Below are positions 1,880-28,708 of a stretch of 37,993 nt of DNA, piece by piece (within the stretch, counting starts at the first letter, position 1; every line of letters starts with the position of its first letter). The translations under genes and the position numbers were made by a program. The notes beneath the pieces are model-generated. The model had not been told where the DNA came from. It made no database searches and was given only the letters and a program-made list of their open reading frames with translations. The DNA comes from Verrucomicrobia bacterium UBA1731 (lineage in GTDB: Bacteria > Verrucomicrobiota > Kiritimatiellia > RFP12 > UBA1067): the NCBI GenBank assembly GCA_002317575.1, contig DCIH01000004.1:21171-59163 (forward strand), read 5' to 3'.

Positions 1880-1922
1880 TTTGCGTTCTCCTTTTTTTCC
1901 TTTTTGGTTTTGTTTTGTGTCG

Positions 1923-2195: not shown

Positions 2196-2198
2196 CGC

Positions 2199-2375: not shown

Positions 2376-2385
2376 TTCCGTTTGT

Positions 2386-2610: not shown

Positions 2611-2615
2611 GGCGA

Positions 2616-3811: not shown

Positions 3812-3925
3812 GTCTTCTTTCCTTCTGTTTTGAAATCGTTTGTTTTGGGTTTCGCGGCTCTGCCTCCGCCCGTCTCGCCGTTTCCGTTCCGCGCCCGGTG
3901 ACGCGCGTTCGTGTGCCGACTTGCG

Positions 3926-4921: not shown

Positions 4922-4967
4922 GTTGCGTTCTCCTTGTTTTTTGTGTTTGTGTGAAGCGGGATTCCGT

Positions 4968-7640: not shown

Positions 7641-7808
7641 TCACTTCGTTTCGCCGTTGGCGCGCTCGCCGTCTTCGATGAGCTTTGCGATCTGCCCCCG
7701 GATGGATCGGTGCTCGCGCTTCGCGTTTTCCGCGATGCGCTTGTGTTGCGCCTTGTCCAGCGTCACGTGGACGAGGACGGTATTCGCTTCTTTCGTGTTT
7801 CCCTTCAT
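7641..7808 (-). CDS. ribbon-helix-helix (CopG/Arc-like) protein, 55 aa, not in ORF track
   Basis: Hand translation: MKGNTKEANTVLVHVTLDKAQHKRIAENAKREHRSIRGQIAKLIEDGERANGETK. It shows a beta-strand/helix/helix pattern. The ATG overlaps the TGA of 7805..8095 (ATGA). SD is ACAAGGAGAACAAACG. Confidence 0.6.
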   Translation of the reverse strand: MKGNTKEANTVLVHVTLDKAQHKRIAENAKREHRSIRGQIAKLIEDGERANGETK

Positions 7809-8095
7809 CGTTTGTTCTCCTTGTTCGTTTCGTTTTCGAGCGCCTCGATGGACGCTTCCGTCACGCCTATGTTCCGGCTTCCCGATCCGCGCACCCCGAC
7901 GAGCCGTCCTGCGCGCACCAAATTCACGACCGTGTTGCGGTGGCGACCGAGCCGACGTGCCGCGTCGCCGATGGAAACCACCGACGAGCGCCTTCCGCCG
8001 ACCAGCGCGCGCTCGATGCGCTCGAGTTCCGCGTCCGTCGCCGTCGGGTCTGCGTGCGCAATCCGCACGATCATCTCTTTCGTCATTTCCTGCAT
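7805..8095 (-). CDS. helix-turn-helix DNA-binding protein (Xis/MerR-type HTH)
   Basis: VSIGDAARRLGRHRNTVVNLVRAGRL is a typical excisionase-type HTH. ATG 8095 behind GGAGAAGAGAAA. Confidence 0.6.
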   Translation of the reverse strand: MQEMTKEMIVRIAHADPTATDAELERIERALVGGRRSSVVSIGDAARRLGRHRNTVVNLVRAGRLVGVRGSGSRNIGVTEASIEALENETNKENKR

Positions 8096-8113
8096 TTTCT
8101 CTTCTCCGATCCT

Positions 8114-8131
8114 CGCGCGGGTACCCGCGCG
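8114..8131. repeat. perfect 18-bp GC palindrome CGCGCGGGTACCCGCGCG (operator or RNA hairpin candidate)
   Basis: Self-complementary by inspection. Lies between the stop of 8136..8333 and the SD of the HTH gene. An A8 run follows at 8138-8145 (plus sense). Confidence 0.6.
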
Positions 8132-8135
8132 CTCG

Positions 8136-8333
8136 TCAAAAAAAACCGCGTGCGCGCTTCGCGGGCTTTCCGGCTCCCGTTCCGCGAGACGCGCGCGGAC
8201 ACCCGCGCGTCTTCAAAAAAAATTTGAACTCGTAAATCACCATCTCTTCCGGGGTTTTGCCTTCGGCTTTTGCCATCCGGCTTGCCAGCTCTACCGTTTC
8301 AGCGTCGAGCAGGAGCTTGTTTTTTTTCGGCAT
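8136..8333 (-). CDS. ribbon-helix-helix-like protein (65 aa)
   Basis: ATG 8333 behind AAGGAAGGG. MPKKNKLLLDAETVELASRMAKAEGKTPEEMVIYEFKFF has an RHH pattern. The C-terminal 25 aa run through a GC hairpin and may not be genuine protein. The track start at 8369 lacks an SD. Confidence 0.45.
   Translation of the reverse strand: MPKKNKLLLDAETVELASRMAKAEGKTPEEMVIYEFKFFLKTRGCPRASRGTGAGKPAKRARGFF
8187..8212. repeat. GC-rich inverted repeat (8-9 bp stem, 8-nt loop) followed by A8
   Basis: GACGCGCG-cggacacc-CGCGCGTC at 8188-8211, with A8 at 8215-8222. Same arrangement as the 8114-8145 element. Confidence 0.5.
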
Positions 8334-8499
8334 CGATGACGCCCTTCCTTTTTGCGTGGTCGTGTACAAGTCGTTTTACGAAATCGGTGTAGGTCATCCC
8401 TTCGGCTTGCGCGGCGGCTCGGAGAAGACGGGCGTCGTCGTCGTTGAACCAGAATCCGATCTTCTTGGTCTTGTGTTTTCCGCTCGGCCCCGAACTCAT
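8299..8499 (-). CDS. ribbon-helix-helix protein (66 aa)
   Basis: KKIGFWFNDDDARLLRAAAQAEGMTYTDFVKRLVHDHAKRKG has an RHH pattern. ATG 8499 behind GGGAGCGGAAA. The 3' end overlaps the next RHH gene by 35 nt. Confidence 0.6.
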   Translation of the reverse strand: MSSGPSGKHKTKKIGFWFNDDDARLLRAAAQAEGMTYTDFVKRLVHDHAKRKGVIDAEKKQAPARR

Positions 8500-8543
8500 T
8501 TTCCGCTCCCGCTTGCCTCTTCAGTTTTCCTCTTTGCCCCGTA

Positions 8544-8573
8544 CTATACCACACGCGCGGGGCCACGCGCAAG
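8544..8573 (-). promoter_or_regulatory. extended -10 promoter candidate for the RHH/HTH operon
   Basis: On the minus strand: TTGCGC (8573..8568), 18 nt, then TGGTATAGT (TG-n-TATAGT, -10 at 8549..8544). Three phased A-tracts lie just upstream at 8579-8605. Confidence 0.4.
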
Positions 8574-8681
8574 CCCCTTTTTTACTTTTTTTTTACCTTT
8601 TTTTACGCGCCGAGGAAAATGTCGGGAGGGGCCGTGTGGCCGCGACGCGCGTCCGAATCTTCCGCGTGCGTCAATCGTCCG

Positions 8682-8852
8682 TCACGGCGATCTGCGCGCG
8701 GCGAGCAACGTGCGCGCCAACGCCTCGACCGGGACGCCGATTTCGTCCGCGCATCTGCAGACGGCCTCGGCTTCGGCCTCGTCGAATTCAACGAAAACGA
8801 CGACGCGGTTTTCCGCGTCGCCGTTTTCCGATCCACTTTTGATTTCGTCCAT
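8682..8852 (-). CDS. ribbon-helix-helix-like protein, 56 aa, not in ORF track
   Basis: Hand translation: MDEIKSGSENGDAENRVVVFVEFDEAEAEAVCRCADEIGVPVEALARTLLAARRSP. ATG 8852 behind AAAGGGGGTGGACGAC. Confidence 0.5.
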   Translation of the reverse strand: MDEIKSGSENGDAENRVVVFVEFDEAEAEAVCRCADEIGVPVEALARTLLAARRSP

Positions 8853-8916
8853 GTCGTCCACCCCCTTTCCCCGCTATCCACGGGCCGGGAATGTTATCAC
8901 GGACGCGTTCCGAACA

Positions 8917-9318
8917 TCACATGACCGCCTGCGCGGCTTGTCCGCCTCCCATGAGCAGTTTGCCGATGACGACGCCGCCTCCTGCGGTCGCGACGTATCG
9001 GAGGACGCGCCACAGCGTCTTCGCTCCCTCGATGCGCTCTTTCTGCGCGCGGTAGTCCTTGTCCGACTCCATGCACGGTTTCAGATCGGACTCAACCTTG
9101 TCGATGCGCTCGTCGAGCTTGTCGATCTTGCCTTCGATGCGCTCGTCGTTTTCGAGCGATTTCTTCACGCGGACGGCTTGGTGCGAGACGCACTCCATCA
9201 AGAGGTCGTCGCGGTCGTCGTACGCCTGCCGTAGGAGCGCCTCGCGGATCGCAGGGTCGGCATTCTCCCTCGCCGCGTCGCGCTTCTCTTTCCACCTCTT
9301 GATCTGCTCTTCCGTCAT
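8917..9318 (-). CDS. tail-anchored membrane protein with coiled-coil N-terminal part (133 aa)
   Basis: MTEEQIKRWKEKRD... with heptad-like KIDKLDERIDKVESDL. C-terminal hydrophobic TLWRVLRYVATAGGGVVIGKLLMGGG. The track start at 9438 is TTG with no SD. Confidence 0.5.
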   Translation of the reverse strand: MTEEQIKRWKEKRDAARENADPAIREALLRQAYDDRDDLLMECVSHQAVRVKKSLENDERIEGKIDKLDERIDKVESDLKPCMESDKDYRAQKERIEGAKTLWRVLRYVATAGGGVVIGKLLMGGGQAAQAVM

Positions 9319-9470
9319 TTTTTGTTCCGTCCTTTTGTTGGTTTCCGTTTCAGTTTGAACTGCGAACACGCGCGTTCGCTTCTCGGAGAAACGATGACGG
9401 CGAAAATCGGGCAAAAACCGTTTTGCGGCCTTTCGCAATCAGCGCATTTCATTTTCTGTTTCGCGCTCAT
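9315..9470 (-). CDS. possible small Cys-containing protein (51 aa), not in ORF track
   Basis: Hand translation: MSAKQKMKCADCERPQNGFCPIFAVIVSPRSERACSQFKLKRKPTKGRNKK. Its TGA overlaps the ATG of 8917..9318 (ATGA). The SD is weak. Confidence 0.3.
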   Translation of the reverse strand: MSAKQKMKCADCERPQNGFCPIFAVIVSPRSERACSQFKLKRKPTKGRNKK

Positions 9471-9637
9471 TTCCGGCATTCTCGTTTGTGCATTTCTTTG
9501 ATCCCGTTCATGTCAACTGGGTTTCGCTTCGACTGTTCCGTTCGCTATGTTTATGAACCTTTTCCCACTTTATTGGAACTTGTGCGCGGCCCTGGCCTAT
9601 GCGTCACCCAAATAAAATCTTCCGCTTTCGCTCTTTG

Positions 9638-9859
9638 TTATTTCATCACCAACTTGCTTTCGAGGGCTTTGTACGATTCCCTTCTTCCGATAGCATCCGC
9701 CGTCGCCATGTTCGCCTGCTTGGCGAAATCGCGATAGCGCCGATGCCACTCTTCGGCGTTGTTCGCGATGCGCAGCGTGTCGCCGTTCTCGCGGACGAGC
9801 TGTCCGACGCGGACGACGGGCCTGTGGTTTTCTTCGCGTACGTGGACTGTGAAGAACAT
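9638..9859 (-). CDS. hypothetical protein (73 aa)
   Basis: ATG 9859 behind GGAG. Balanced composition. Last gene before the AT-richer gap. Confidence 0.55.
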   Translation of the reverse strand: MFFTVHVREENHRPVVRVGQLVRENGDTLRIANNAEEWHRRYRDFAKQANMATADAIGRRESYKALESKLVMK

Positions 9860-9863
9860 GGCG

Positions 9864-10334
9864 TCACTCCGCTTCCAACGGCGATCCGAGCGTCATGAAC
9901 TTCCGCTTGATTTTGGAGATCCCGTTCGTCCTCACGGCGAACGCGAACGCCTCGAATTCCTCGCGTCTCGCGCCGACGTGCTCGGAGAGCCACGCCTTGT
10001 CCGTCCCGGCGAGCGTGTTCGTGAACGCCACTTCGATTTCGCGGGCGAGCAGATTGTACTTCCTGTTGATTTTCGCCTGCGACTTCTTGTGCTTGACGCG
10101 TCCGTCTTCGATGACGCGCGTCTCGCCAGTCGCGCTTTGCGCGTGCTTCGCGTTCTCTTCCGCTTCCATTCGCGCGTCCGGCGTGTCGGCGGTCATGACC
10201 CATCTCAAGTCGCGCCGCAGGCATTCGTCTGCCCACCGTGAAACCTCTCCCGAATCGAGCGGCATCGCCGCAAGAAGTCCAGCCGTAGCCGCAAACGCGG
10301 AAAAAGCCGCCGCCGTGATTTTCAGTGCATCCAT
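9864..10334 (-). CDS. hypothetical protein with N-terminal signal peptide or signal anchor (156 aa)
   Basis: MDALKITAAAFSAFAATAGLLAAMPLDSG hydrophobic N-terminus. GGGGAGG SD. Confidence 0.55.
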   Translation of the reverse strand: MDALKITAAAFSAFAATAGLLAAMPLDSGEVSRWADECLRRDLRWVMTADTPDARMEAEENAKHAQSATGETRVIEDGRVKHKKSQAKINRKYNLLAREIEVAFTNTLAGTDKAWLSEHVGARREEFEAFAFAVRTNGISKIKRKFMTLGSPLEAE

Positions 10335-10349
10335 TTCGCGCCTCCCCGA

Positions 10350-11606
10350 TTACTGGTTCACGGCGATTGCCGTTATGTTTCCGCCCGGTTGAATCCGAAT
10401 TCCCCACATCTGTCCGTCTTCGCCTTTGAGGAAGAACTGGCCGTTCACCCAAAGTTCGCCGTTGATGGTAGTCTTCAGCATACGGGTCACCTGCGCGTCG
10501 TAACCGAGCCGCCAGTAGCATTCCCGCGCGTCCGAGACGAGATTCGACACGCCCGGAACAGTCACGATGCCGATGGCCTTCTGCGCGTTCGCCGCCGCAG
10601 TCCACGTGGCGTTCGTAAGGTGCTGTTTGTAGTAGACCGTCAGTTTCGTGAGGTCTACGGAGTCCGCGTCGAGGTTCCATCCGAGGTACGCCTTGTCCGC
10701 CGCCGCGTCGTATTTCACCGACGTGAAGCACAGGGAGTTCGACGCGATGCCGTGGAACGCAACCTCTATCGCGTTCGTGTCGCCCGCCTTGACGACCAGT
10801 TCGTTTGCGTTGTTCTGCCGGATCGCGTAGCGTCCTTTGGTCGTGCCTTTCCCGTCGAACGCCATTTGGCATCCGTTTGCCACAGTCACGTTGTTCGACG
10901 CGTGGTACTTGCTCCAATCCTGCCCGAGGTTTCCGGCGCGGCAATGGTACGCCCACTCGCGCCACTTTCCGAGCTGGCTCTCGCCCATCGAGTCCACGGT
11001 CGGAACGACGAGCTTCGTGAGGTCGTTTACCCATTCCGTGTTTCCGTTCGCCACCTCGTAGATTGCGAGGTCGCTGATGGAGAAGTCGCCTGCTTCCGTC
11101 TTGACGCAGTAGATGATTGCGACGTTGCCGTTGATCTCCGTGGTGATAGAGCCGCAAGGCGGCGTTCCGATTCTCGGCGATTGGTTCACCGAGTCGAAAA
11201 CGATGTCCGCGATGCGCACGTGGCTTCGGCAAGTAATGATGATGCGGTTCGTGACGTTCAGCGTGTTAATCCACTGAGATCCGGCCCAATGTCCGCACAG
11301 CGTCCACTCGTCCAATTCGTTGTCGTATGCGATTTCGGTGTCCCAAACGATGGACGCCTCGCTCCTGTCGAGGATTTCCAGCGTGTATCCGCGCACGCTC
11401 ATGGGGTCTGCAACGGGTTTCGTCTCGCCCTCGTCCCCGATGAACATTGAGACCGAACCGTTGCGTTCGTCCATGTATGCGACCTCGCCCGTCTTGAGAG
11501 GCGTAGAGAACGCCGTTTCGGGATTTGTCTTCGGGACGATTAGCGGAGCCGCATTGGCGAAAAGCGCCGCCGCGACAGCCGCGATGATTGTTGTTGCCTG
11601 TTTCAT
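10350..11606 (-). CDS. secreted or exported hypothetical protein (418 aa)
   Basis: Classical signal peptide MKQATTIIAAVAAALFANA-AP. Beta-rich, Asn/Thr/Trp-rich body. No family recognised. Confidence 0.6.
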   Translation of the reverse strand: MKQATTIIAAVAAALFANAAPLIVPKTNPETAFSTPLKTGEVAYMDERNGSVSMFIGDEGETKPVADPMSVRGYTLEILDRSEASIVWDTEIAYDNELDEWTLCGHWAGSQWINTLNVTNRIIITCRSHVRIADIVFDSVNQSPRIGTPPCGSITTEINGNVAIIYCVKTEAGDFSISDLAIYEVANGNTEWVNDLTKLVVPTVDSMGESQLGKWREWAYHCRAGNLGQDWSKYHASNNVTVANGCQMAFDGKGTTKGRYAIRQNNANELVVKAGDTNAIEVAFHGIASNSLCFTSVKYDAAADKAYLGWNLDADSVDLTKLTVYYKQHLTNATWTAAANAQKAIGIVTVPGVSNLVSDARECYWRLGYDAQVTRMLKTTINGELWVNGQFFLKGEDGQMWGIRIQPGGNITAIAVNQ

Positions 11607-11634
11607 TTGTTTTGCGTTCCCTTCGGGTTCGTTG

Positions 11635-13152
11635 TCATTCGTAGAGGTTCAGCTGGCATCCGACGCTCGCGGCGTACGCCTTGATGACGGGCAACGCCTT
11701 GATGAAACTCGGGCCGCTTCCCGCGTATGTGAAGAGCGACGTGACTATCCACTTTCCGTCGTGGTGGAAATAAATCGGGTGTCCGCTGTCGCCGGAATGT
11801 ATCGGGTATGCTACGCCCATCGTCTTCAGTTTCGTGGCGATGTCGTTTCGGGAGTACTCGCATCCCATGTCGAATTTCCACGTGGAGCCGTCTCCGCGCA
11901 CGGACGAGTAGACGAGTTGCATCGGGTCGTCGAACGCCTGCGTCGCGCACCAGCATTGGATGCCCTGCAGTTTCACGAACTGCTCTTTCATCTTCGCCTC
12001 GCTCATGAGGTACGGGCAGTCGGCGAGCGGGATTTCGCCTTCGAGGATCGTGACCATCGAAATGTCGTCTATGTTCATTGCCGCGATCTGCGCGGCGTTC
12101 CACCCGTTTGAAACGGCCCACTTGTCGAGACGCACCCATTCGCCTTTTTTCACGGTCGTGGAGCCGATGGTTTGGAAACCCTCCCACTTGCACCAGTCCG
12201 GGTAGTGAGTCGCGCCGACGAGCAGTTTCGTACCGAGCGCGAACGGCTTGTCGTTTCCGACGTGTCCTGCGCTCGTAGCCGCCCACGCTGGTTGAGTGAA
12301 ATATCCCCACTTGTACCACGTTTCTTCCGTGCCGACGATTCCGGGGCCGTGGTTCGGCGCGGCGTTTATCCACGCCAACGCTTCGTCGTTTACGGCCTTG
12401 CGCGCTGAACCTTCGTGGTCTGCCCAGTAGAGCGTTTCGTCTATCGTGTCTTGCGTGCCGTTCGAGATCGGAACTTCGGCGTATTTGATTTCGCCGTACT
12501 GGTTCACGGCGCTCACGACGTAGATGCCGCTCGCGTTCGCCGTGAGGTGTCCGTTCGACGATACGGAGCCGCCCGACGTGAGGCATCTCCACCCGCCAAC
12601 GGTCAACGCCTCGATGCTGTATTCGTCGTAAAGTTCGCCCCAGCAGTCCGCTTCGAGGTTTCGGACGTGGTGCGACTGGAGAACGTTGTAAATCTGCCCG
12701 CAGTCGTTTTCGTACGTTCCGACGATTGTCTGCGAAGAGCTGGAGCTGGACAGTTTGAACTCTATTCCCCACGCGCCCGCCTTGCTCCAGCACGGTTCCG
12801 TGTTGACGCTCTTCCGAACGCTTTCGATGCGGTTCGTCGCGTCCGTGTATCGGCTTTCCACCCACGGAACGAGATTCGTCACCGTATCGGGGTTTCCCTT
12901 GACCTTGCCCCACTTGCACGTGAGCGGTTCGACGACATCCGCCTGCGCGGAGAACGCCAAAAACGAAACGCACGCGATTGCCCCAAGTTTTTTCACAAGC
13001 GAATTGAACGCCGCCATGAGCTGGTCGAGGTCGTTGTCGTCCGTGTTTAGGTTGTGCGGTATCCCGGTCATGTCGAGGCGCGTGCGAGCGCCACCGTCTT
13101 TGATGTCGTAAGTTGTACCGTCTGTCATCTTGATCTGCGCAATGTCGGCCAT
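11635..13152 (-). CDS. chimeric fibre-like protein: fibre N-terminal motif fused in frame to a protein retaining a signal-peptide-like segment (505 aa)
   Basis: ATG 13152 behind GGGAGGGA. MADIAQIKMTDGTTYDIKDGGAR matches the N-terminus of the neighbouring fibre (VTRYIKDGEAR). Residues 46-71, MAAFNSLVKKLGAIACVSFLAFSAQA-DV, look like an intact Sec signal peptide. The track start at 13254 lacks an SD. Confidence 0.6.
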   Translation of the reverse strand: MADIAQIKMTDGTTYDIKDGGARTRLDMTGIPHNLNTDDNDLDQLMAAFNSLVKKLGAIACVSFLAFSAQADVVEPLTCKWGKVKGNPDTVTNLVPWVESRYTDATNRIESVRKSVNTEPCWSKAGAWGIEFKLSSSSSSQTIVGTYENDCGQIYNVLQSHHVRNLEADCWGELYDEYSIEALTVGGWRCLTSGGSVSSNGHLTANASGIYVVSAVNQYGEIKYAEVPISNGTQDTIDETLYWADHEGSARKAVNDEALAWINAAPNHGPGIVGTEETWYKWGYFTQPAWAATSAGHVGNDKPFALGTKLLVGATHYPDWCKWEGFQTIGSTTVKKGEWVRLDKWAVSNGWNAAQIAAMNIDDISMVTILEGEIPLADCPYLMSEAKMKEQFVKLQGIQCWCATQAFDDPMQLVYSSVRGDGSTWKFDMGCEYSRNDIATKLKTMGVAYPIHSGDSGHPIYFHHDGKWIVTSLFTYAGSGPSFIKALPVIKAYAASVGCQLNLYE

Positions 13153-13275
13153 AGCATCCCTCCCGCCTTTGCCGTTGCGGTAAATTGTCACCATCCCGTA
13201 AAAACGGGGCGGACGGTTTCCGTTTCCGTACGCCGCCCGCCCTGTTTTGATCACTTGCGGCTCAAGCCGCGTCCC

Positions 13276-14322
13276 TTACGAGACCGTGACCGCGCCGGAC
13301 ACGCCCGTGAAGGTCGCGCTCGGATAGATTTCCTCGCCCGTGAAGGTGGCCGTGCTGACCGTACCAGCCGGGGTGATCTCGGAGACCGCGACCGTGCCGG
13401 ACGGGGTGCACAGACCGCCGTCGAGGTTCGCCGCCGTGCCCGTGAAGGTCGGAGCGGAGATGGATCCGGCGGGAGTGATGCTCTCCACCGAGACGTTGCC
13501 CGCCGCCGTGACCGAACCCGTGACCGCCGAAGCGGAGCCCGTGAAGGTCGGGGCCGTCGCCGTCGCCGTCGCGCCCGTCACGAACGACTTGCTGGCCGCC
13601 GTGAGCGTCAGCACTTCGCCCGAAACAGAAGCCGTAAGTTCGCCGATGCTGGCCGTCGGAGCGGAGACCTCGATGGTCGGAGCGGAGACCGTGCCGTAAG
13701 GCGTGCAGGAGCCGTTGGCGAGGTCGACCGTCGTGCCCGTGAAGGACGCGCTCGGCGTCACCGCCGTGCCCGTGAACGCGGGGGCGCTGACCGAACCCGT
13801 GGCCGTCACCGTGCCCGTCACCGCAACGGACGAACCCGTGAAGGTCGCCGTGGGCGTCACAGCCGTGCCCGTGAAGGTCTGCGCGCTGATCGTGCCTTCG
13901 GGCGTGATCATGCCGACGCTCACGGTGCCGGTAGGCGTGAACGAACCCGTTGCGCTGTCCTTGTAGGCGAGAGCGCCGAGCTTGCCGGACGAACCGAGTT
14001 CGCACCAGCTCGTACCGTTCCAAATGAACTCGAGGCCCTGCGTGGTCTGGCCGACCGTCTTGTTGTAGCAAACGAAGTTGCCCTTCGTGACCGTCACTTC
14101 CTTGGTCTCGCCCGAGCTGCCCGTCTTGTAGACGTCAATCGGGTTGACGGTCGAGCCGTCGACCAGCTCCGTGGCGGAAACGCCGAGGAACTTCACGCCC
14201 TGCGCGACGAGCTCTTCGAGCGCGGTGATGGCCGTGCGGGCCTCGCCGTCCTTGATGTAGCGCGTCACGTTGTCCGGGGTGACAATCTGCGACAGATAAT
14301 TCTTGGTAGGATCGTCAGTCAT
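13276..14322 (-). CDS. tail fibre protein with beta-strand TFTG repeats (348 aa)
   Basis: N-terminal YIKDGEAR motif, an FIWNGTSWCELG knob-like motif, then at least 8 copies of x-FTG-T/S-x-V-T units. Confidence 0.65.
   Translation of the reverse strand: MTDDPTKNYLSQIVTPDNVTRYIKDGEARTAITALEELVAQGVKFLGVSATELVDGSTVNPIDVYKTGSSGETKEVTVTKGNFVCYNKTVGQTTQGLEFIWNGTSWCELGSSGKLGALAYKDSATGSFTPTGTVSVGMITPEGTISAQTFTGTAVTPTATFTGSSVAVTGTVTATGSVSAPAFTGTAVTPSASFTGTTVDLANGSCTPYGTVSAPTIEVSAPTASIGELTASVSGEVLTLTAASKSFVTGATATATAPTFTGSASAVTGSVTAAGNVSVESITPAGSISAPTFTGTAANLDGGLCTPSGTVAVSEITPAGTVSTATFTGEEIYPSATFTGVSGAVTVS
13279..13953 (-). repeat. in-frame coding repeats (TFTGTAVTP-type units)
   Basis: cccgtgaaggt(c/g) recurs at about 13306, 13340, 13440, 13540, 13737, 13838 and 13870. 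Confidence 0.7.
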
Positions 14323-14365
14323 TTTTCAATGCCTTTCTTTTTTGTTTGTTTGTGGTGTTGCAACA

Positions 14366-16369
14366 TCACGAAGGAACGTCCCCCGTGGTGAGAATGAGTT
14401 TCTGCCCGTTCGCGTACGCGCCGACGCGAGAACCGATGCGGGCGATGGCCGCTCCGATTTCCGTTGCGCTCACGCCGCTGTCTGCGAGGTTTCCGTCGAC
14501 GGTCAGCGACGCAAGATGCCCAGCCGTTGCGTTCTTGACCTTGTCCGCCTTGCCTTCTCCCGCTCCGCCGTTGTCGAGCTTTTCCTTGTCGGCGGCGCTC
14601 ATGAGTCCGTCCATCGTGGTCGTTGCCGTTCCGTCGAGATTCACTTCGACGGAGAACGACGCGTCTTCCTCTTGGACGATGATCTTCATCTTCTGCAGGA
14701 ACACGTCGTAAACGACGGAGCTGACAGTCTGCCAAGTTCCGAAGCCGGGCGTCCCGCGCTTGCGAGACCTTTCGTTGAACACTGCCTGCCAGTGCGATTC
14801 CTTGTTTGCGAACGCGTCCGGCTCGGTTACCGCCTTGACGACCGTCAAATTCCCGAACGAATCGTTGCCGCAGAACTCGGTGTGCCAGTACGGTTCCTCT
14901 TCCGGCGCGTACGCCTTGGTGTACTTCAGCTTTTGGAGAAGCGACCTCATGCCAGCTTCCGTGTTCGCGGTCGCGTAGTTCTCGAGGATGATGTTCATGC
15001 GCTCGAGTCCGATGCCGTACGGATCGAGTCCGTTGACGATGGAGTAGTCCACGCGTCCGCTTCCAGTTGCGTCTGTCGCCACGCGGTAGTTTGTCACCCA
15101 CGGGCGGCTCGTAATGTCTTTAGCCACGCCGTCCTCGACCAGCCACGTGCTTGTTCTGTCGGCGAGGATGAAGTGCACGTCGAAGTTCCAGCTGACGGGA
15201 ACCCACACCGCGTCCGCGAGGAACCGGGCCGCGCCCTGCGCCGTCGAGAATCCGTCCAGCGCGTACCGAACGCCCGAGAAGACGCACACGTCGCGCCCAT
15301 GCCATCCGCTCGTCGCCTTCTTCGGAACGACGTTCACGCAGGCCGTGAGAGACACGTCGTTTATGCCGTCCGTAATCATGCAAGGCATCGCCTTCATCCA
15401 GTCGTTTTTAGCCCTGCTTGCGACGATCTCGTCGGTGAGTTGCTTGATGCCCCCGGCGATGCCCATAGTACGGTGCTTTCCGTTGTGCGCTTCCGTGCGC
15501 ACGATGAAGCTCGCGCTTTCGTCGTAGTACCAGTCGTAGTTGCGCCCGAAGTATCGGAAGTTCCGGGCGACCGAGCAGAGTCCCATCGCCGCGAACTGGT
15601 AGTTTTGCTTGAGCCACTCTTCGACGCCTTCGTAGTCGATGGCGCGGTATTCCGTCAGCCACAGGTACTCCCGCACTTTTTTGATGAGCGAGTAGCCGTT
15701 CCCGTAGACGCCTTCGTAGAGCTTGTCGTCCGCCGCCTTTCGCGCCGCCGTTTCCGCCATGTCAGCCGCCGCGCGCGTCACGGTCTCTGCGGCGAGGTCT
15801 TCCGCACCTGCAAACGACGCCGGATTCTTTCCGCTGTCCGCGATATTGCCGTCCGCCGTGAGCGACGCGAGGTTGCCAGCAGTTGCGTTTTTCACCTTGT
15901 CGGCCTTGTCGGCCACTTCGGCGGAAATGTCGATCACGACGTTTCCTGTACCGTCCGGCTTCTTTCCGTTCACGGAGAGGACGACGTACCGCCCTGCTTC
16001 CGGGTCGCTCGGATCCATCTGCGGCACGATCCCCTGCATGGTCGATTCCGTCACCGTCAGCTTTCCGCGCCCGCTGAAGTAGTAGGTCGGCATCTTGAAG
16101 TGGACTTCGTAGAAGCTCTCGCCAAGCGTGTCAAACGTCTCGTTTGTGAATGTGACGCGCCAAACGTTGCCGACCTTGCGCGTGTTATATTCCCACGGGA
16201 TCGCGCTCCCCGGCTTGACGACAACGACCTTGACGTCGCTGGCCCCGGTGGGCACGCCGACGATGTCCGCCATCGCCGCCGAGTTCTCGCCGACGTAGAG
16301 CGCCGTGAGCTGGATTTCGGGGTTGCCCGTTTGAAGTTGAACCGAAGTCGTGATCTGCCTGCCGTACAT
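14366..16369 (-). CDS. tail fibre/spike protein with embedded Ntn-hydrolase (choloylglycine hydrolase / penicillin V acylase-like, C59) domain (667 aa)
   Basis: ATG 16369 behind GAGGGAGG. The central region reads C265-SVARNFRYFGRNYDW...HRTMGIAGG...ITDGINDVSLTACVNVVP...DVHFILADRTSTWLVEDG...RPWVTNY. This parallels the bile-salt-hydrolase motifs C-T...GRNMD, DGMNEKGL..AGLN and LTNSP. It is flanked by KADKVKNATAG(N/H)LASLT.DGN.ADSG fibre repeats and a GLMSAADKEKLD motif. Confidence 0.7.
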   Translation of the reverse strand: MYGRQITTSVQLQTGNPEIQLTALYVGENSAAMADIVGVPTGASDVKVVVVKPGSAIPWEYNTRKVGNVWRVTFTNETFDTLGESFYEVHFKMPTYYFSGRGKLTVTESTMQGIVPQMDPSDPEAGRYVVLSVNGKKPDGTGNVVIDISAEVADKADKVKNATAGNLASLTADGNIADSGKNPASFAGAEDLAAETVTRAAADMAETAARKAADDKLYEGVYGNGYSLIKKVREYLWLTEYRAIDYEGVEEWLKQNYQFAAMGLCSVARNFRYFGRNYDWYYDESASFIVRTEAHNGKHRTMGIAGGIKQLTDEIVASRAKNDWMKAMPCMITDGINDVSLTACVNVVPKKATSGWHGRDVCVFSGVRYALDGFSTAQGAARFLADAVWVPVSWNFDVHFILADRTSTWLVEDGVAKDITSRPWVTNYRVATDATGSGRVDYSIVNGLDPYGIGLERMNIILENYATANTEAGMRSLLQKLKYTKAYAPEEEPYWHTEFCGNDSFGNLTVVKAVTEPDAFANKESHWQAVFNERSRKRGTPGFGTWQTVSSVVYDVFLQKMKIIVQEEDASFSVEVNLDGTATTTMDGLMSAADKEKLDNGGAGEGKADKVKNATAGHLASLTVDGNLADSGVSATEIGAAIARIGSRVGAYANGQKLILTTGDVPS
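14474..14551. repeat. direct repeat, left copy (pairs with 15830..15913)
   Basis: About 75% identical by hand alignment to 15830..15913. Both copies encode KADKVKNATAGxLASLTxDGNxADSG. Confidence 0.7.
15830..15913. repeat. direct repeat, right copy (pairs with 14474..14551)
   Basis: See the left copy. Together the two copies bracket the Ntn-hydrolase domain. Confidence 0.7.
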
Positions 16370-16402
16370 TGTCGCCTCCCTCGTTTTCGCCGCGCGGGTC
16401 AA

Positions 16403-19051
<2,649 letters not shown>

Positions 19052-21334
19052 TCACGCCGGAGGTTCGTATGCCTTTCCCCAATCGTCCGGGTCGTCGTCG
19101 TCGTATTCTCCGATGTCGAATCCGAGCAGGGTTCTGTGCTCGTATTCGACCACGAGGTTGCGCATGGAGATGACGTGGCTTGATTGTGTCATCCCGCACG
19201 ATTCCGCCTGCGGAGCGTCCGCCTGCGGAAACGGCAACGGCTGGACGGTCGCCTCCCACGTCTCGAGCGTTCTCGGTATCGACGCGAGGTCGGCGTAGAA
19301 ATTCTTGACGATCTGCTCGCGTTCAGCCGATCCGCTGTTGATTCTCTGCGCCCTCGCTTTCGTCCACTTGCTTCGCGCGTCTTTCACGGCGTCCACGGCC
19401 TTGTTGATCTCGTTGTTCAGCTCGCGCTGTTTGTCTCGTATCAGTTTTTGCGCGTGCGCGTTCGGTTCGGATGCCGCCTCATAAGCGGCGTCCATTTGTT
19501 CGATTATTTTTGCGTCGCGTGCGTCCGGCTCGAGCCAGTCCATGCGTATGATTTTCTCGACCGCGTCGTTTGCGCTCCTGTCCGTCGGACGGCACGCGTC
19601 GAGCGCTTCGGCGAGGCGTTCGTTTCGGAATTCGATGATCGTCTTTCGCGCCGCGTGACGGACGCCGAGTTCCGCCTTTTTGAGGTTTTCCACGGTAGTC
19701 GACCATGACGAGTCGATTGACGCGACCTCTTCGCGCTCCTTGTTTCGTGATTTAGTAAGCTCTGTGTTCGCCTTTTCCCACGCCGTTTCGTATTCAGCCA
19801 CTTTTTTCTCGTTTCGCTCCTTGAACGAGAACGACACGCGCTGGAATCCGATGTCGCAGAGCTCGCGTTGCACCTCTCGCCGTTCCGTCTGCTTGTCGAT
19901 TGGGTCTCCGAACTTGTCAACGAGGTGCACGTATTCTCCCCAGTACTGCTCTTCGGGATAGGTTCCTTGGTCTTCGTCGAGTTCCCACCGTCCGTCCATG
20001 CGCGCGGCCATAACCCAAGTCGCCGCAGACAGGACGAAATCGGCGCGCACCGCCTTGATGCGTCCCGTTTGGTAGCAGTTTGCGACGCTGATCTTGTATT
20101 TCACGGAGTCAGCCGTGATTCGCGTGTACGTGTCGTATTGCGTTCGCGGCTTCGGAGGCGTCGCCGCCACCTTGCGGCTTCCGTTCTTTCCGTAGTATGT
20201 TGCGTACGCGATGTTTGCGTAGTCGTAACGCCACCACGCGCTGTACGCGGCGAGTCCCGTGTCGTTTGTCCACCCGAGCGTGTCCGTCACGTTGGCGTTT
20301 TGGTATTCTCCGAAGTTCGCCTGCTGGTCGGGCCTGTCCATTTCGCTCCCGCCTTCGCTACCGGACTGCGTCTTCCACTTTGACGTTTCATGGAATCCCG
20401 AACGTATCGGCAACGCGGCGCTTGTCCACGTCATGGTCATGCGTTCGGCGTCCGCGTACAGGCGCTTGACGTCGTCCTCCAGCAGAAGTTCCGCACGGTG
20501 GTTCTCCGGCGCTTCGCGCGTGATTGCGCCTTGCGCGTCCGCAATCCAGAACCCGTGACCTTTGTGGTTTTTGTCGGAAAGGAGAAAGTCGAGGACGTTT
20601 GCGGCGTATGCGTCGGCGCTTTCGCCCTCGAAGTCGCACAGTTCCAGCGACGCGTACTTCGTGAATCCGTCGGCGAGGTTTTCCTTGGAGGCGAGTTCCT
20701 TGACGTCGATCCGCGCGGAGTCGTATGCGTCCGCTTTCGCGTCTTCGCATTCCGTCTTTATGGCGTACAGGTTTTTCGACGACGTCTTGCGCTCGGATTC
20801 CGTCGCCGCGTTCCACGCGTCCGTTATGGCGGAGAGACGCATTTCGTGGTGGAACGCCATTCCGCGCAGGACGAGCTTTTTCTTCTCCTTTGCCCACGCG
20901 AGGTGTCTCTTCGCCGTCGAGCAGGCATCCGCGCACGCGGCGTACGCCTCGGCGGCGGCGACCCATTCTTCTTCCGTTTCTGCGGATTCCATTGCCGCCT
21001 TGGCCGCGTCTTCGGCCTCTTTGAGCGTGTCGTATGCTTCCTGTTTGGCGTCCACGTCGTCCTGCAGTTCTTTCGTCTTGCGTTCCAAGGCGTCGGCGTA
21101 CGTCTCGTTTTCTGCCGCCTGCTGTGCGCTGTGCGTTTCAGCGACTTGTGCGAGCGCTTCGGAAAGGCGAGAGTTTTCGGAGATTGCCGCCTGCGCGGCG
21201 GCTTCATTCGCCTCTTCGACGGCTTCGTCCCGCTCGGCGTATCGCGCCGCGATCTTTCCGAACGACGGGTACGAGACCATCCCCGCCTGCTTCATCAGCG
21301 CGCCGATGCGCTTGTAGTTTTCCCTGTTTCCCAT
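19052..21334 (-). CDS. large distal-tail/baseplate-associated structural protein (760 aa), family unknown
   Basis: ATG 21334 (MGNRENY) behind GGAG; the track start at 21346 is TTG directly abutting the upstream stop. Coiled-coil-like Ala/Glu-rich flanks around a globular core. Position lies between the tape measure and the fibres. Confidence 0.5.
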   Translation of the reverse strand: MGNRENYKRIGALMKQAGMVSYPSFGKIAARYAERDEAVEEANEAAAQAAISENSRLSEALAQVAETHSAQQAAENETYADALERKTKELQDDVDAKQEAYDTLKEAEDAAKAAMESAETEEEWVAAAEAYAACADACSTAKRHLAWAKEKKKLVLRGMAFHHEMRLSAITDAWNAATESERKTSSKNLYAIKTECEDAKADAYDSARIDVKELASKENLADGFTKYASLELCDFEGESADAYAANVLDFLLSDKNHKGHGFWIADAQGAITREAPENHRAELLLEDDVKRLYADAERMTMTWTSAALPIRSGFHETSKWKTQSGSEGGSEMDRPDQQANFGEYQNANVTDTLGWTNDTGLAAYSAWWRYDYANIAYATYYGKNGSRKVAATPPKPRTQYDTYTRITADSVKYKISVANCYQTGRIKAVRADFVLSAATWVMAARMDGRWELDEDQGTYPEEQYWGEYVHLVDKFGDPIDKQTERREVQRELCDIGFQRVSFSFKERNEKKVAEYETAWEKANTELTKSRNKEREEVASIDSSWSTTVENLKKAELGVRHAARKTIIEFRNERLAEALDACRPTDRSANDAVEKIIRMDWLEPDARDAKIIEQMDAAYEAASEPNAHAQKLIRDKQRELNNEINKAVDAVKDARSKWTKARAQRINSGSAEREQIVKNFYADLASIPRTLETWEATVQPLPFPQADAPQAESCGMTQSSHVISMRNLVVEYEHRTLLGFDIGEYDDDDPDDWGKAYEPPA

Positions 21335-21346
21335 CGTCGGCTCCAA

Positions 21347-22276
21347 TTACCGTCCGCGCGCGTTGTCGAGGTCGCGCTTGGCCTTGTCGTATGCTTCTTC
21401 CGCTTCTTCCAGCGCTTTCTTGGCCTCCTTTTCGCGCTCCGCCCAGTCCGCGCTCTTTTGGGATCGTGAGTCCATGATCGCCTTGTACGCCTCCTGCGCG
21501 TCTGCGTACGCCCGTTCTGCGTCTTTGTACGCCGCCATTTCGGCTCCGACGCCCTGCACCTCAGCGATGGCGATTTCTGTATTGTCTATCGCATCGTTTA
21601 GCGCGTCGACGAGTTCCTGCGAGTACATTTCCGGCGTGCGTCCGTGTATGTACGTGTTGAGGTCGTTTTTGAGTCCTGTAGCCGTCTGTTTGAGCGAGAG
21701 TTCATCGTCTTCGTCTCTCGCGTTGTCGATCTTTTCGTCGAGCGACTGCTTCCATTTGTTGTACACGGCCTTCTTGAGCGCCTTCATTTCCGGGTCGCCC
21801 TCGTATTTCATGTACTCGTCCATCGCTTCGATCATCTTGTCGGCGATTTCGGACGCGCTCATCTTTTCCGCCATGCGTTTTTGCTCGGCGAGAACTTGGC
21901 TTGCGTAATCCCGGAACTTGAAGTCCCACTCCCTGTCGCAGACGAATCGAAATCTCGACTCCATCGGCTCGTCGATTCCGTCAGCGCTCCAAATCCACCC
22001 GAGATCAAGCGCGCCTGTCAGTTGTCCGTGCGGGACGTCCACGTCGTTTTCCGTGATTCGCGGAATCGTGTACACCCACGAGCGGAAGTCGGGCATCAAT
22101 CTTCCCGTCCACGTGAAAGGCCCGCCCGTCCGCTCTATGGCCGCTTCGGCGAGGAACGGCGGATCTTCCGTCTTCATGACGCGCTTCTGCGCGCGCATCG
22201 GGAGCTTGCCTTCCTTGCCGTTGTCTTCCACGCGCCGGAGGTCATCGTCGAAGAAGAATTCATAATCGTAGGCCAT
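21347..22276 (-). CDS. structural protein, family unknown (309 aa)
   Basis: GGAGG SD, balanced composition, located in the distal-tail block. Confidence 0.5.
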   Translation of the reverse strand: MAYDYEFFFDDDLRRVEDNGKEGKLPMRAQKRVMKTEDPPFLAEAAIERTGGPFTWTGRLMPDFRSWVYTIPRITENDVDVPHGQLTGALDLGWIWSADGIDEPMESRFRFVCDREWDFKFRDYASQVLAEQKRMAEKMSASEIADKMIEAMDEYMKYEGDPEMKALKKAVYNKWKQSLDEKIDNARDEDDELSLKQTATGLKNDLNTYIHGRTPEMYSQELVDALNDAIDNTEIAIAEVQGVGAEMAAYKDAERAYADAQEAYKAIMDSRSQKSADWAEREKEAKKALEEAEEAYDKAKRDLDNARGR

Positions 22277-22295
22277 TTGTTCGCCTCCGCCCGCG

Positions 22296-23270
22296 TCAGT
22301 TGTAGAACGGGATTTTAGAGAGCTGGCTTCTGTTGTCTTGGGTCACGACGTCGTCTTCGAGTTCATAGATCGTGACGCACGTCTTGTCGTCGTCGCTCTG
22401 CGCTTCCGTTTGAACGACCGAGAGCGTGAAATCCTCGGCTGGGTGGTCGACGCGGACGACGACTGTCTGCCATTCGTTGACGCACGTGTTTTCCGTTTTC
22501 GTGGCCTGCACGCGACCGAGCATCATGCGCTGGTTCGTGACGTACGGCTTCCACGCCGCGTCCTTTTCGATTTCCTTGCCTTCTTCCGTTTCGTATACGA
22601 TGGCGAACGTCCCGGTCGTGTCGCGCTCTAATTTCACGACGTCGTCCATGATCTGCTGGTTGACGAAGTGCTCTGTCACCGTTCTTTCGCCTTCGCCGGA
22701 GTCGTAGGTGTATGTGACGCGGCAGATGGTTCCGACGACGTCGCTCTGCATGGTCTTTCCGAATCCGTCCGTGTCAGCCGACGCCAAGACGCGCGGCCAC
22801 GGTTTTAAGTGCGCGTAAATCGTCCATTTTTCAACGCGTCTCGCCACGCCCTCGTATTCGCTTTCGTCGCTCGTCGCATGATCGTCATCCACGTCGGCGA
22901 TGGCGTACCAGTCGCCTATGATTTCGCCATCCGCGTCTTTCGCGTTGTCGTTTTTCGCCATGTACAGGTCGTCGGCGTTGAGGATCGCCGATCCCGTCGG
23001 CACGAAAATCTGCCATTCTCCGAGCGTGTCGTCTTCCTCGCTCCAAGGGAACCACCTAATCGTCCACGGCTTGACCGCTTCTTCGTCGGCGAACACGTTC
23101 GTGCGCGGCGATTCCGTGGCCGCGTTGATGGTAGTCCCGAAGCCGGAGCGGGATATGCGCTGGCCGACGGACGGCTTGACCTGCGACTGCTTGATGATCT
23201 TGACGAGCGTGCGACCAAACGCCACAGTTATCGGCTGGTCGGGGTTCGGCGGTTTTGGCGCGTACTGCAT
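22296..23270 (-). CDS. structural protein, family unknown (324 aa)
   Basis: AAGGGGGA SD. Beta-rich acidic protein in the distal-tail block. Confidence 0.5.
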   Translation of the reverse strand: MQYAPKPPNPDQPITVAFGRTLVKIIKQSQVKPSVGQRISRSGFGTTINAATESPRTNVFADEEAVKPWTIRWFPWSEEDDTLGEWQIFVPTGSAILNADDLYMAKNDNAKDADGEIIGDWYAIADVDDDHATSDESEYEGVARRVEKWTIYAHLKPWPRVLASADTDGFGKTMQSDVVGTICRVTYTYDSGEGERTVTEHFVNQQIMDDVVKLERDTTGTFAIVYETEEGKEIEKDAAWKPYVTNQRMMLGRVQATKTENTCVNEWQTVVVRVDHPAEDFTLSVVQTEAQSDDDKTCVTIYELEDDVVTQDNRSQLSKIPFYN

Positions 23271-23288
23271 GGCGGCATCCCCCTTACG

Positions 23289-24194
23289 CTATTCCAGCTT
23301 TCCGTCGTAGATCCACGTGTGGTTCAGGTCGTTTGTGCACACCCATTCTTCGGTGCGCGTCCACGTCGTGTCGGCGTTCATCTGCCATTGGTCGACGGAT
23401 TTGAACCAGCGGTACTTATCGGAGTCGGTGTACCCCTTGATTTTCACCGGGGGGTCGCAGAACTGCCCGATGGTTTCGTCGTCGTCGCAGATCTCGAACG
23501 TCGCCCCCTTTTCGATGGCGTGCGTGTCGGGGTCGAATTTGACGCCTTTCGGGCGGACGTAGTTGCTGACCTTTTGGATCACGGGGAGGTAGAGGTTGAA
23601 GCTGTCTATGCCAGCCGTCTTGGCCGCGCAGTATTTTTTCGCGCCGACGCTGTTTACCTTCAGCTCCTTTCCGACCGCGCTTCCGCGTTCGTCGAAGTTG
23701 AAATAATAGAACGTCGGGTCGTTGTTCTCGTCCCACTTGGTGCGCGCCGCCTCGTTTGTCATGTTCCACTTGCGTATCTGCTTCTGTGCGTTCTTCGAGT
23801 CCGCGTCGAGCTTCGCTGGCATGAGTAGGTAGTGCGTCTCGAGGGACTTCTGAACCTCGCGCATCTCGATGTTGTACGTGACGGCGAACTCTTTGTCGAC
23901 GCCGTTTGGCGCGTGGACGAGCTGTGCCGTTATGACGCCGACGAGCGCGTCGCGCCTGCTCTTCTCGAGGTCGATGATGTAGTAGTGCGACGCGTCCGGG
24001 AGGTCTTCCGCTTTGACGAGCCAGTCCGTTGCGCGCTGTCCGACGTACGCGCCCTCTCCCTTGATGTCTTCCCAACGGGCGACCATCGTTATGGTGACGT
24101 ACCTGCGGTCGTCGTATTTGATCGACAGTTCCGGCTGAGCGAACATTTCGCCTTCGGCCAGCTTTCCGTAGTAGATCGGCTCTTTCGTTGCCAT
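23289..24194 (-). CDS. putative distal tail protein, called by position after the tape measure (301 aa)
   Basis: ATG 24194 (MATKEPIYYG) behind GAGAGGAA. It is the first gene after the tape measure. No motif recognised. Confidence 0.4.
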   Translation of the reverse strand: MATKEPIYYGKLAEGEMFAQPELSIKYDDRRYVTITMVARWEDIKGEGAYVGQRATDWLVKAEDLPDASHYYIIDLEKSRRDALVGVITAQLVHAPNGVDKEFAVTYNIEMREVQKSLETHYLLMPAKLDADSKNAQKQIRKWNMTNEAARTKWDENNDPTFYYFNFDERGSAVGKELKVNSVGAKKYCAAKTAGIDSFNLYLPVIQKVSNYVRPKGVKFDPDTHAIEKGATFEICDDDETIGQFCDPPVKIKGYTDSDKYRWFKSVDQWQMNADTTWTRTEEWVCTNDLNHTWIYDGKLE

Positions 24195-24249
24195 GTCGCG
24201 TTCCTCTCTCTTTCGCAATTGCCGAAGAGGTCAAACGCGCAAGGCCGCG

Positions 24250-28704: not shown

Positions 28705-28708
28705 GCCG

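Follow-up and report, generated by a model that had tools for sequence, protein, structure and literature searches.

A predicted self-cleaving cysteine Ntn-hydrolase domain embedded in a putative phage tail fibre

N-terminal nucleophile (Ntn) hydrolases act through a free N-terminal nucleophile that is generated either by autoproteolysis or by removal of the methionine. Bile salt hydrolases (BSH) and penicillin V acylases (PVA), which make up the CBAH (C59) family, are soluble cytoplasmic or periplasmic homotetramers. Isopenicillin-N N-acyltransferase (IAT, cleaved between Gly102 and Cys103), acid ceramidase and NAAA are autoproteolytic members of the same clan, and IAT self-cleaves into alpha and beta chains that stay associated. 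Here we describe an intact 667-codon open reading frame (ORF) at 14366..16369 on the minus strand of a 37,993-nucleotide stretch of contig DCIH01000004.1 from Verrucomicrobia bacterium UBA1731, the whole of which we refer to as the window. The product is probably a phage tail-fibre protein, and its central part is a cysteine Ntn-hydrolase domain that we predict to be self-cleaving.

Enzymes and self-cleaving modules are both known from phage fibres. To our knowledge, the enzymes described from virions have beta-helix lyase or glycosidase, sialidase, SGNH esterase, and peptidase or lysin folds. Enzymatic tail fibres and tailspikes, such as the phi29 gp12 neck appendages and the lactococcal neck-passage structures, are comparable to the predicted protein in carrying a catalytic domain on a virion appendage, in being encoded in a fibre gene cluster and in having a modular N-terminal anchor common to alternative fibres. 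They differ in that no Cys-Ntn amidase was found among GenBank phages (one partial match aside), PHROGs or BFVD. Autoproteolysis of a fibre after folding is likewise an established theme, known from the peptidase S74 chaperone of endosialidases and T5 pb1. S74, a C-terminal chaperone of the Ser-Lys type, is however released and plays no enzymatic part afterwards, whereas cleavage in the Ntn fibre is predicted to activate a retained enzyme and to split the fibre in mid-chain.

Identity of the central domain

Residues about 224-576 of the protein are a genuine Cys-Ntn hydrolase domain with the four-layer alpha-beta-beta-alpha fold, as confirmed by homology, profile and structure comparisons. Six remoter relatives, which share about 30 % identity with the query over its central 350 residues (E=1e-24 to 1e-44), match the Pfam families PF03417 (AAT) and/or PF02275 (CBAH), and five of the six are above a Pfam gathering score. 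The CBAH gathering score is passed by the homologues P0004 (29.1 bits) and P0011 (44.5 bits) and by 25 of the 47 long members of the family, while that of AAT is passed by 44 of the 47.

A profile built from eight domain sequences reached E=4e-8 against PDB structures of bile salt hydrolases and penicillin V acylases. With 122 family sequences the profile matched 28 BSH/PVA chains, the best at E=2.4e-15. This match consists of three collinear stretches that take in GRNYDW (G-R-N-x-D), DG(I)N(D/E)xG...N, T-N and a C-terminal W/Y-T-V-x-S-x-Y-D-x-x-N-K-T-L.

The AlphaFold2 model of residues 224-576, made from the family alignment, has a predicted local distance difference test score (pLDDT) of 94.6 and a predicted template modelling score (pTM) of 0.93. 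A Foldseek search of the PDB with this model returned 82 matches at E<=0.001, and the 50 listed were all BSH, PVA or IAT (the precursor 2x1c and the mature 2x1d/e) at probability 1.0, with a best E-value of 5e-10 and TM-scores of 0.39-0.53. For BSH, the sequence identity is 10-16 % and the TM-score 0.45-0.5.

A preliminary description of this DNA had proposed an embedded hydrolase domain of the choloylglycine-hydrolase type. The Pfam scores of the homologues, the profile match and the Foldseek result bear this out, with the domain best described as choloylglycine-hydrolase/AAT-type. The accompanying expectation of a CBAH profile match held for the homologues and for the family profiles, which reach the BSH and PVA structures, and did not hold for the query alone, which has no PF02275 match. 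The one direct match of the query is to NCBIfam NF040521 C45_proenzyme ('C45 family autoproteolytic acyltransferase/hydrolase'; E=2.9e-5, 23.6 bits against a cut-off of 85), and a phmmer search of the PDB with the query gave only spurious or weak matches. Judged by its sequence relationships, the query is an outlier within a clearly CBAH-homologous family.

The motifs from which the domain had initially been recognised are all at the positions given for them, namely C265 with R276-N-Y-D279, DGINDVSLTACVNVV at 334-348, DVHFILADRTSTWLVEDG at 397-414 and WVTNY at 424-428. We found C265, R276, D279, D334, G335, N337, N427, G454, R457, W546 and E567 to be invariant in 95 full-length homologues and N346 to be conserved in at least 90 % of them. 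The presumed nucleophile, which had been expected to be conserved, is thus present in 95/95. In the AlphaFold2 domain model it is residue 42, at the start of the beta-strand 41-47.

We take the BSH catalytic set to be Cys2, Arg18, Asp21, Asn82, Asn175 and Arg228. In the HMMER alignments R276 and D279 fall on the BSH Arg and Asp, N346 on the oxyanion Asn and N427 on the T-N Asn. C265 pairs with BSH Cys2 in one weak stretch only, which by itself scores -2.2 bits, and R457 is a plausible equivalent of the second BSH Arg (Arg228), although no alignment pairs the two.

The nucleophile is internal in all 95 homologues, where it is preceded by 10-433 residues, mostly at least 37, and by 264 in the query. 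With a Cys that is never N-terminal, the family is most naturally read as autoproteolytic proenzymes. Gly occupies position -2 in 73 of the 95 sequences and Gly or Ala occupies position -1 in 80, giving a family consensus of G-[GA]-C-S. About 25 residues further upstream lies another conserved motif, D-Y-L-Y-E-[VI]-x-Y-x-D-x-D-Y, which in the query reads E-Y-L-W-L-T-E-Y-R-A-I-D-Y. Single positions of this pro-segment are well kept across the homologues (Y235 in 81/95, L236 in 76/95 and G263 in 73/95), and the domain model folds it into strands 5-10 and 13-18, which form a beta-hairpin, and a helix 23-36 with pLDDT >90. Such a conserved and well-modelled pro-segment is compatible with an alpha chain that would be retained after cleavage. 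We would therefore class the domain, on sequence grounds, as a proenzyme-type cysteine Ntn hydrolase of MEROPS clan PB(C), between C59/CBAH and C45/AAT.

With the CBAH/C59 enzymes (BSH/PVA; PDB 5hke, 8bls, 2bjf, 4wl2 and 2oqc) the domain shares the Ntn fold, a collinear profile match over the whole domain and several active-site elements, namely Arg and Asp within G-R-N-x-D, an oxyanion Asn that follows DG(I/M)N-E/D-x-G and the T-N Asn; the Cys nucleophile is probably equivalent as well. It differs in that its Cys is at residue 265 and follows a conserved pro-segment of about 40 residues, whereas the BSH/PVA Cys is at position 2 or follows a very short propeptide. The spacing from Cys to Arg also differs, being 11 in the fibre and 16 in BSH (Cys2 and Arg18 in the numbering of the preliminary description).

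The likeness to C45/AAT (PF03417, NF040521, PDB 2x1c/2x1d) lies in the internal Gly-Cys-type site, with G-[GA]-C-S before the nucleophile in the family, and in AAT being the Pfam family that most relatives match (44/47). The IAT precursor also provides the Foldseek matches of lowest root-mean-square deviation, at 6-7 A. In contrast, the NF040521 scores stay under the cut-off of 85 bits, at 62-64 bits for the relatives, and the fibre pro-segment of about 40 residues compares with an IAT alpha subunit of roughly 100. IAT is a peroxisomal fungal acyltransferase, whereas the fibre domain has no sign of acyl-CoA chemistry, and a fibre context is unprecedented for the C45/AAT family.

The wider family and its contexts

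The family profile was compared with 1.84 billion representative proteins and the matches were counted as clusters at 50 % identity. At a cut-off of E<=1e-30 there were 1,275 clusters, rising to 2,419 at E<=1e-10 and to 4,240 at E<=1e-3. Many of the best 150 matches are long, up to 2,061 aa, with the domain in an N-terminal, central or C-terminal position and at least one protein having two copies. The partner modules include Phage_fiber_rpt, Phage_tail_C, BppL_N, BppU_N, Gp53-like_C, SU10_adaptor, phage neck terminator, LRR_5 and Laminin_G_3. Further partners are a gp6-like connector (a weak match, E=0.0017) and scattered PHROG tail, tail-fibre and baseplate families.

Several members were examined at their own loci. 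One lies downstream of tape-measure and Dit genes (P0007, locus L001), and a fibre-type relative (P0022, L002) has an Amidase_3 endolysin gene directly after it. P0011 is found between the capsid and head-tail genes of an SPbeta-like phage (L003), and P0028 is at the head-tail connector position of a Solibacillus silvestris prophage (L019). In the last two loci (L003 10001..11623 and L019 10001..11329) the Ntn domain is fused to head-tail connector/adaptor-type modules between the capsid and tail-tube genes. As far as gene order and fusion partners indicate, the enzyme of these two phages would sit at the neck and not on a distal fibre.

Another member is the target of a diversity-generating retroelement (DGR), a kind of element whose targets are typically receptor-binding proteins. 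At this locus (L016, IMGVR_UViG_3300045988_123216, 7671..12283) a protein of 962 aa has both the Ntn domain and the C-terminus of a tail protein. The variable region at the end of its ORF (10378-10492, 115 nt) and the template region 256 nt downstream (10634-10748) have 18 mismatches, all at adenines of the template, and the template region is followed by the reverse transcriptase ORF (10967..12283).

The family also has members outside phages. In a Clostridia bacterium metagenome-assembled genome, three tandem Ntn paralogues lie in a non-phage context beside a sensor kinase and S9/M20 peptidases (L020 5023..9140). At least one of these paralogues (P0094, 410 aa) has a signal-peptide-like N-terminus according to a heuristic. 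A cellular secreted branch of the Ntn family therefore exists. The NCBI name of some members is 'carcinine hydrolase/isopenicillin-N N-acyltransferase family protein', and several come from gut-type samples or taxa (Dysosmobacter, Lachnospiraceae, 'human fecal').

Phage reference sets hold very little of this family. No PHROG family covers the Ntn domain; compact members have 0 matches there and long members match only through their partner domains. A Foldseek search of BFVD gave no phage relative, the sole match being a giant-virus TANGO2 protein at E=6e-4. Neither blastn nor tblastn of the gene or domain matched any of 50,697 GenBank phage records. When P0011, a more central member, was compared with the GenBank phages, one partial Ntn match was found, to an unannotated 6-kb fragment of a metagenomic faecal 'Bacteriophage sp.' and to nothing else. 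A search of IMG/VR by two conserved patterns gave three loci. In the literature we found no description of Ntn, C45 or C59 domains in phage structural proteins. The fibre-embedded architecture was believed in the preliminary description to be undescribed, and it still appears so from the literature and the phage reference sets, with the proviso that absence from searches is not proof.

Proposed mechanism and alternative explanations

We propose that the gene encodes a tail fibre with a self-cleaving Cys-Ntn amidase that acts on a polymer of the host surface, and we put the probability of this prediction at roughly 0.6. After folding, the chain would cleave itself between L264 and C265 into fragments of 28.6 and 43.9 kDa. 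Cleavage would free the alpha-amino group of C265 to serve as the general base, and the two chains would be held together non-covalently through the beta-hairpin and helix of the pro-segment, like the alpha and beta chains of IAT and acid ceramidase. The resulting virion-borne amidase would hydrolyse an amide bond of a polymer on the host surface, either a non-peptide bond or one in a side chain. Candidates are N-acyl or amino-acid-amide groups carried by capsule, O-antigen or teichoic-acid-type glycans. The enzyme would then modify a receptor or depolymerise a surface layer, much as esterase and glycanase domains do in other fibres.

More tentatively, and at somewhat less than even odds, we hypothesize that phage particles display a large and hitherto undescribed class of cysteine Ntn amidases that activate themselves, of which this protein is the first recognised member, and that its fibre is split mid-shaft by autoproteolysis and held by the alpha/beta interface.

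Several observations weigh against the proposed self-cleaving surface amidase. The query alone has no CBAH or AAT match in Pfam at E<=1. At the predicted cleavage site it has G-L-C, a Leu at -1 that it shares with six others (7/95) where Gly or Ala is usual, and both the query and its homologue P0002 have Ser550 where at least 90 % of the family has His (H550). Because the TM-scores are only 0.45-0.5, the substrate is not transferable from BSH, PVA or IAT. The neck and adaptor fusions sit less easily with action at the tail tip. In addition, about 29 of the 95 sampled members have signal-peptide or lipoprotein-like N-termini by a crude heuristic and resemble secreted bacterial proteins outside any phage context. 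The ancestral substrate therefore need not be a phage receptor, a further caution against presuming action at the tail tip.

One alternative explanation is that the domain has no external substrate to turn over and serves as a binding module, in effect a pseudo-enzyme adhesin, or as a mere self-cleaving device for maturation. It is the alternative that survives best and we nevertheless regard it as unlikely. Autoproteolytic maturation modules such as the S74 intramolecular chaperones are established in fibres, many of the structural fusions of the family include necks, where a cell-surface substrate is less obvious, and the query departs from the family at -1 and H550. Against this stands the conservation of the active site: C265, R276, D279, N427 and R457 are invariant and N346 is kept in at least 90 % of the 95 sequences, a diverse set that takes in phage fusions, and this goes beyond what autoproteolysis or binding alone should require. 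Furthermore the whole 350-residue fold has been kept and not a minimal cleavage module.

Alternatively, the enzyme may be a virion-associated cell-wall hydrolase that cuts a peptidoglycan amide (in the stem peptide, the cross-bridge or at MurNAc-L-Ala) and would be a tail-associated lysin of a new type that helps the tail to penetrate, and not a receptor-modifying enzyme. Phages of Gram-positive hosts often carry peptidoglycan hydrolases on the virion, the family has members in Firmicutes prophages and phages (Solibacillus, SPbeta-like), and the fibre-type relative mentioned above is found directly before an Amidase_3 endolysin at the end of a tail module. The fold, however, is unknown among peptidoglycan hydrolases, and the PDB matches are all BSH, PVA or IAT. 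No cell-wall-binding domain was found by Pfam in the 667-aa query, which is placed on a fibre, as other members are on a fibre or neck, and not on the tape measure or the tail tip. The phages examined already encode ordinary lysins (CHAP, Amidase_3), and we give this explanation slightly less than the small chance that we allow a binding or maturation role.

A third explanation, proposed in the preliminary description, is that of a small-molecule amidase on the virion, which would act on conjugated bile salts, penicillin V or acyl-homoserine lactones in an auxiliary metabolic or signal-quenching role. BSH and PVA are the closest solved structures, and fibre-repeat relatives as well as several family members come from gut-type samples or taxa. 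The distance to these enzymes is large nonetheless, given the low BSH identity and TM-score and the Cys-Arg spacing of 11 instead of 16. The homologues score 19.8-28.5 bits against the NCBIfam BSH equivalog NF038245, whose cut-off is 350, and the query does not match it. Nor is there an obvious gain for a virus in a bile-salt enzyme on a fibre, a baseplate or a DGR-diversified receptor-binding protein. We therefore reject a bile salt hydrolase proper, find the suggested specificity for bile salts or penicillin V to be without support, and consider a small-molecule amidase improbable.

Finally, that the motifs are a chance resemblance within an ordinary fibre with no real Ntn domain could be argued from the missing Pfam and phmmer matches of the query, and is refuted by transitive homology through proteins that pass Pfam, by the BSH profile match at E=2.4e-15, by the confident model that Foldseek assigns to Ntn hydrolases at probability 1.0 and by the invariance of the motif residues.

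Architecture of the fibre, its locus and significance

The features of the gene and its immediate neighbours are given in Table 1. The start codon ATG 16369 was favoured over the upstream TTG 16402 because of the ribosome-binding site GAGGGAGG with its 5-nt spacer, and it lies 34 nt past the TAA stop of the upstream collagen-fibre gene. The coordinates and residue numbers of the preliminary description were correct. An identical protein is present in public data (P0001), as is the homologue P0002 with 65 % identity, while an exact 51-mer had no match in IMG/VR or in the JGI metagenome contigs. The contig of the latter (L018) keeps the gene order of collagen fibre (51 % identity), Ntn fibre and third fibre-like gene (38 %). 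A plus-strand ORF at 14303..18406 was read as a spurious ORF of a high-GC sequence (the window is about 61 % GC) because the minus-strand product has clear homologues.

Table 1. Coordinates of the Ntn fibre gene, its predicted modules and adjacent genes
Feature	Position	Strand	Basis
Fibre protein CDS, complete with stop, 667 aa, 72.4 kDa	14366..16369	-	ORF list; public homologues; synteny in L018
Ribosome-binding site GAGGGAGG, 5 nt upstream of ATG 16369	16375..16382	-	Read from sequence
N-terminal beta-rich domain, residues 1-115, probable virion attachment module	16025..16369	-	BLASTP against the collagen fibre
Fibre repeat copy 1, K155-G180, KADKVKNATAGNLASLTADGNIADSG	15830..15907	-	phrog_31688 E=1.5e-18; same repeat three times in tandem in L007 fibre
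Long alpha-helix, predicted, residues 183-221	15707..15823	-	Full-length AlphaFold2 model, pLDDT about 55-85
Predicted pro-segment / alpha-chain of the Ntn domain, residues 224-264, ending G263-L264	15578..15700	-	AlphaFold2; YL[YW]..Y..DY motif
TGC codon of Cys265, predicted nucleophile and new N-terminus after autoproteolysis	15575..15577	-	Invariant 95/95
Ntn-hydrolase beta-chain, residues 265-575, with R276, D279, N346, N427, R457	14645..15577	-	Profile, Foldseek, invariance
Fibre motif GLMSAADKEKLD, residues 588-599	14573..14608	-	Resembles FtbO motif; phrog_6907
Fibre repeat copy 2, K607-G632, KADKVKNATAGHLASLTVDGNLADSG	14474..14551	-	61/78 nt identical to copy 1
C-terminal tail, residues 633-667, 35 residues	14369..14473	-	Kept only in P0002
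Upstream neighbour, 865-aa collagen-like tail fibre, N-terminal domain in common	16403..19000	-	Pfam Collagen E=2.7e-41; many PHROG tail-fibre families
Downstream neighbour, 348-aa putative third fibre	13276..14322	-	Position and repetitive sequence only

The fibre setting that had been claimed for the domain is borne out by the position of the gene among fibre genes, by the fibre repeat phrog_31688 and by the synteny in L018. From the fibre gene cluster and the fibre-type repeats, we consider the gene product to be a phage tail-fibre protein. Its predicted order would be an N-terminal attachment domain, fibre repeats, a helical stalk, the Ntn proenzyme, one more fibre repeat and a C-terminal tail.

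The preliminary description had also stated that the N-terminal domain is shared with the collagen fibre. A match was found, and it is weak: residues 1-115 have 27 % identity with the N-terminus of the 865-aa protein over 108 collinear residues (E=2e-4). This weak evidence fits an attachment module common to both fibres. The full-length AlphaFold2 model is of low confidence outside the enzyme domain, including the N-terminal domain and the C-terminal tail, and the helix at 183-221 is a possible coiled-coil stalk leading into the enzyme domain. In Pfam, the query alone has a sub-threshold match to Expansin_C (E=0.021) at residues 27-73.

Residues 132-180 have typical fibre motifs, SVNGKKPDGTGNVVIDI followed by KADKVKNATAGNLASLTADGNIADSG. 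On the other side of the enzyme, GLMSAADKEKLD is weakly similar to the repeated G[FL][ML]S..DK.K[IL]D motif of FtbO (PDB chain 9j1l, E=0.07), and phrog_6907 matches residues 518-600 at E=1.4e-6.

Direct repeats had been reported on both sides of the domain and interpreted as the trace of a cassette exchanged by recombination. The repeats are present, and KADKVKNATAGxLASLTxDGNxADSG is encoded twice. The two copies are identical at 61 of 78 nt (78 %) and share no exact run longer than 8 nt; of the 15 codons that differ, 12 are synonymous. The short longest run and the mostly synonymous divergence indicate old copies held by selection on the peptide and not a recent duplication or a usable substrate for recombination. 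We thus reject the recombination signature and regard the repeats as two diverged copies of a widespread fibre repeat.

The repeat (phrog_31688) is a common fibre unit of gut phages, present once in L006, three times in tandem in a 324-aa fibre of L007 and in tandem in hundreds of near-identical 324-aa fibres that have no Ntn insert, one of them from Dysosmobacter. In L007 (9659..10633) and in P0262-P0381 these fibres carry KADKVKNATAG...SGN.TDSGKKP three times in tandem; their contigs are about 30 kb long, and one is annotated Dysosmobacter sp. These proteins suggest a gut phage or prophage lineage that is very widespread and has a fibre repeat in common with the window.

Homologous fibres lacking the enzyme had been suggested as a further line of evidence. 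A search with residues 1-222 for such fibres with the N-terminal domain gave only repeat-level matches to the 324-aa tandem-repeat fibres, so that tandem repeats elsewhere were found and an 'empty-site' relative with the N-terminal domain was not. In other fibres the units of this repeat follow one another in tandem, whereas in the Ntn fibre the enzyme domain separates two of them, and an ancient insertion of the domain is therefore a reasonable, sequence-based explanation.

Most other structural genes of the window could not be assigned to a family, as PHROG, Pfam and PDB searches of the neighbouring tail genes mostly gave no match. The 348-aa downstream neighbour (13276..14322) matches no Pfam or PHROG family. 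The target gene is downstream of a 1484-aa gene that is a possible tape measure by size and position only. Hardly any of the large genes upstream of the fibres (19052..31307, minus strand; 1484, 764, 357, 324, 309 and 309 aa) matches PHROG or Pfam, and by sequence comparison the particle architecture of the phage in the window is essentially unannotatable.

Two genes downstream of the target, a 539-aa protein (11635..13254, minus strand) has a fibre-like N-terminus and, near its C-terminus, 'HSGDSGHPIYF', which recalls the GDSGxP active site of serine proteases. It has no Pfam, PHROG or PDB sequence match and may be another enzymatic fibre. In the head/packaging-side region, an 826-aa protein (32399..34879, minus strand) ends in PF15644 'papain fold toxin 1, glutamine deamidase' (E=1.9e-9, residues 654-766) and could be a virion-delivered or ejected effector. 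A 228-aa protein (36760..37446, minus strand) matches PHROG gamma-glutamyl cyclotransferase (E=3e-14) and an amidoligase family, and may be an auxiliary or host-takeover gene.

A replication/recombination module is found at 506..6017 on the minus strand, with ParB-like (506..1879), RecE-linked (3926..4921, phrog_3657 E=1.6e-82) and RecE-like exonuclease (4968..6017) genes. Relatives of the RecE-linked protein are scattered across phages of many phyla and hence give no clue to the host, and the putative capsid gene of the window has no match and gives none either. The sole weak hint of a host comes from Dysosmobacter and 'Firmicutes CAG' genomes, which contain relatives of the fibre at the level of its repeats.

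Enzymes known from virions are mainly glycanases, lyases, esterases and peptidoglycan hydrolases, which set the host range and serve as capsule depolymerases and enzybiotics. If the proposal is true, a Cys Ntn amidase on fibres would be new virion chemistry, cleaving amide-linked substituents or polymers, and would imply that phages have to clear away a corresponding class of receptors or shields. If a whole class of such amidases is displayed on phage particles, the breaking of amide bonds in surface polymers of the host would count as a new category of enzymatic activity on virions.

The protein thus appears to place a known enzyme superfamily in an undescribed setting that is virion-borne, in mid-fibre and predicted to be self-cleaving, as part of a large uncharacterised family. 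This family is abundant in metagenomes. Because it is essentially absent from cultured phages and phage protein databases, the whole module type is now annotated 'hypothetical'. The secreted bacterial relatives are equally uncharacterised, and solving the substrate would annotate thousands of proteins.

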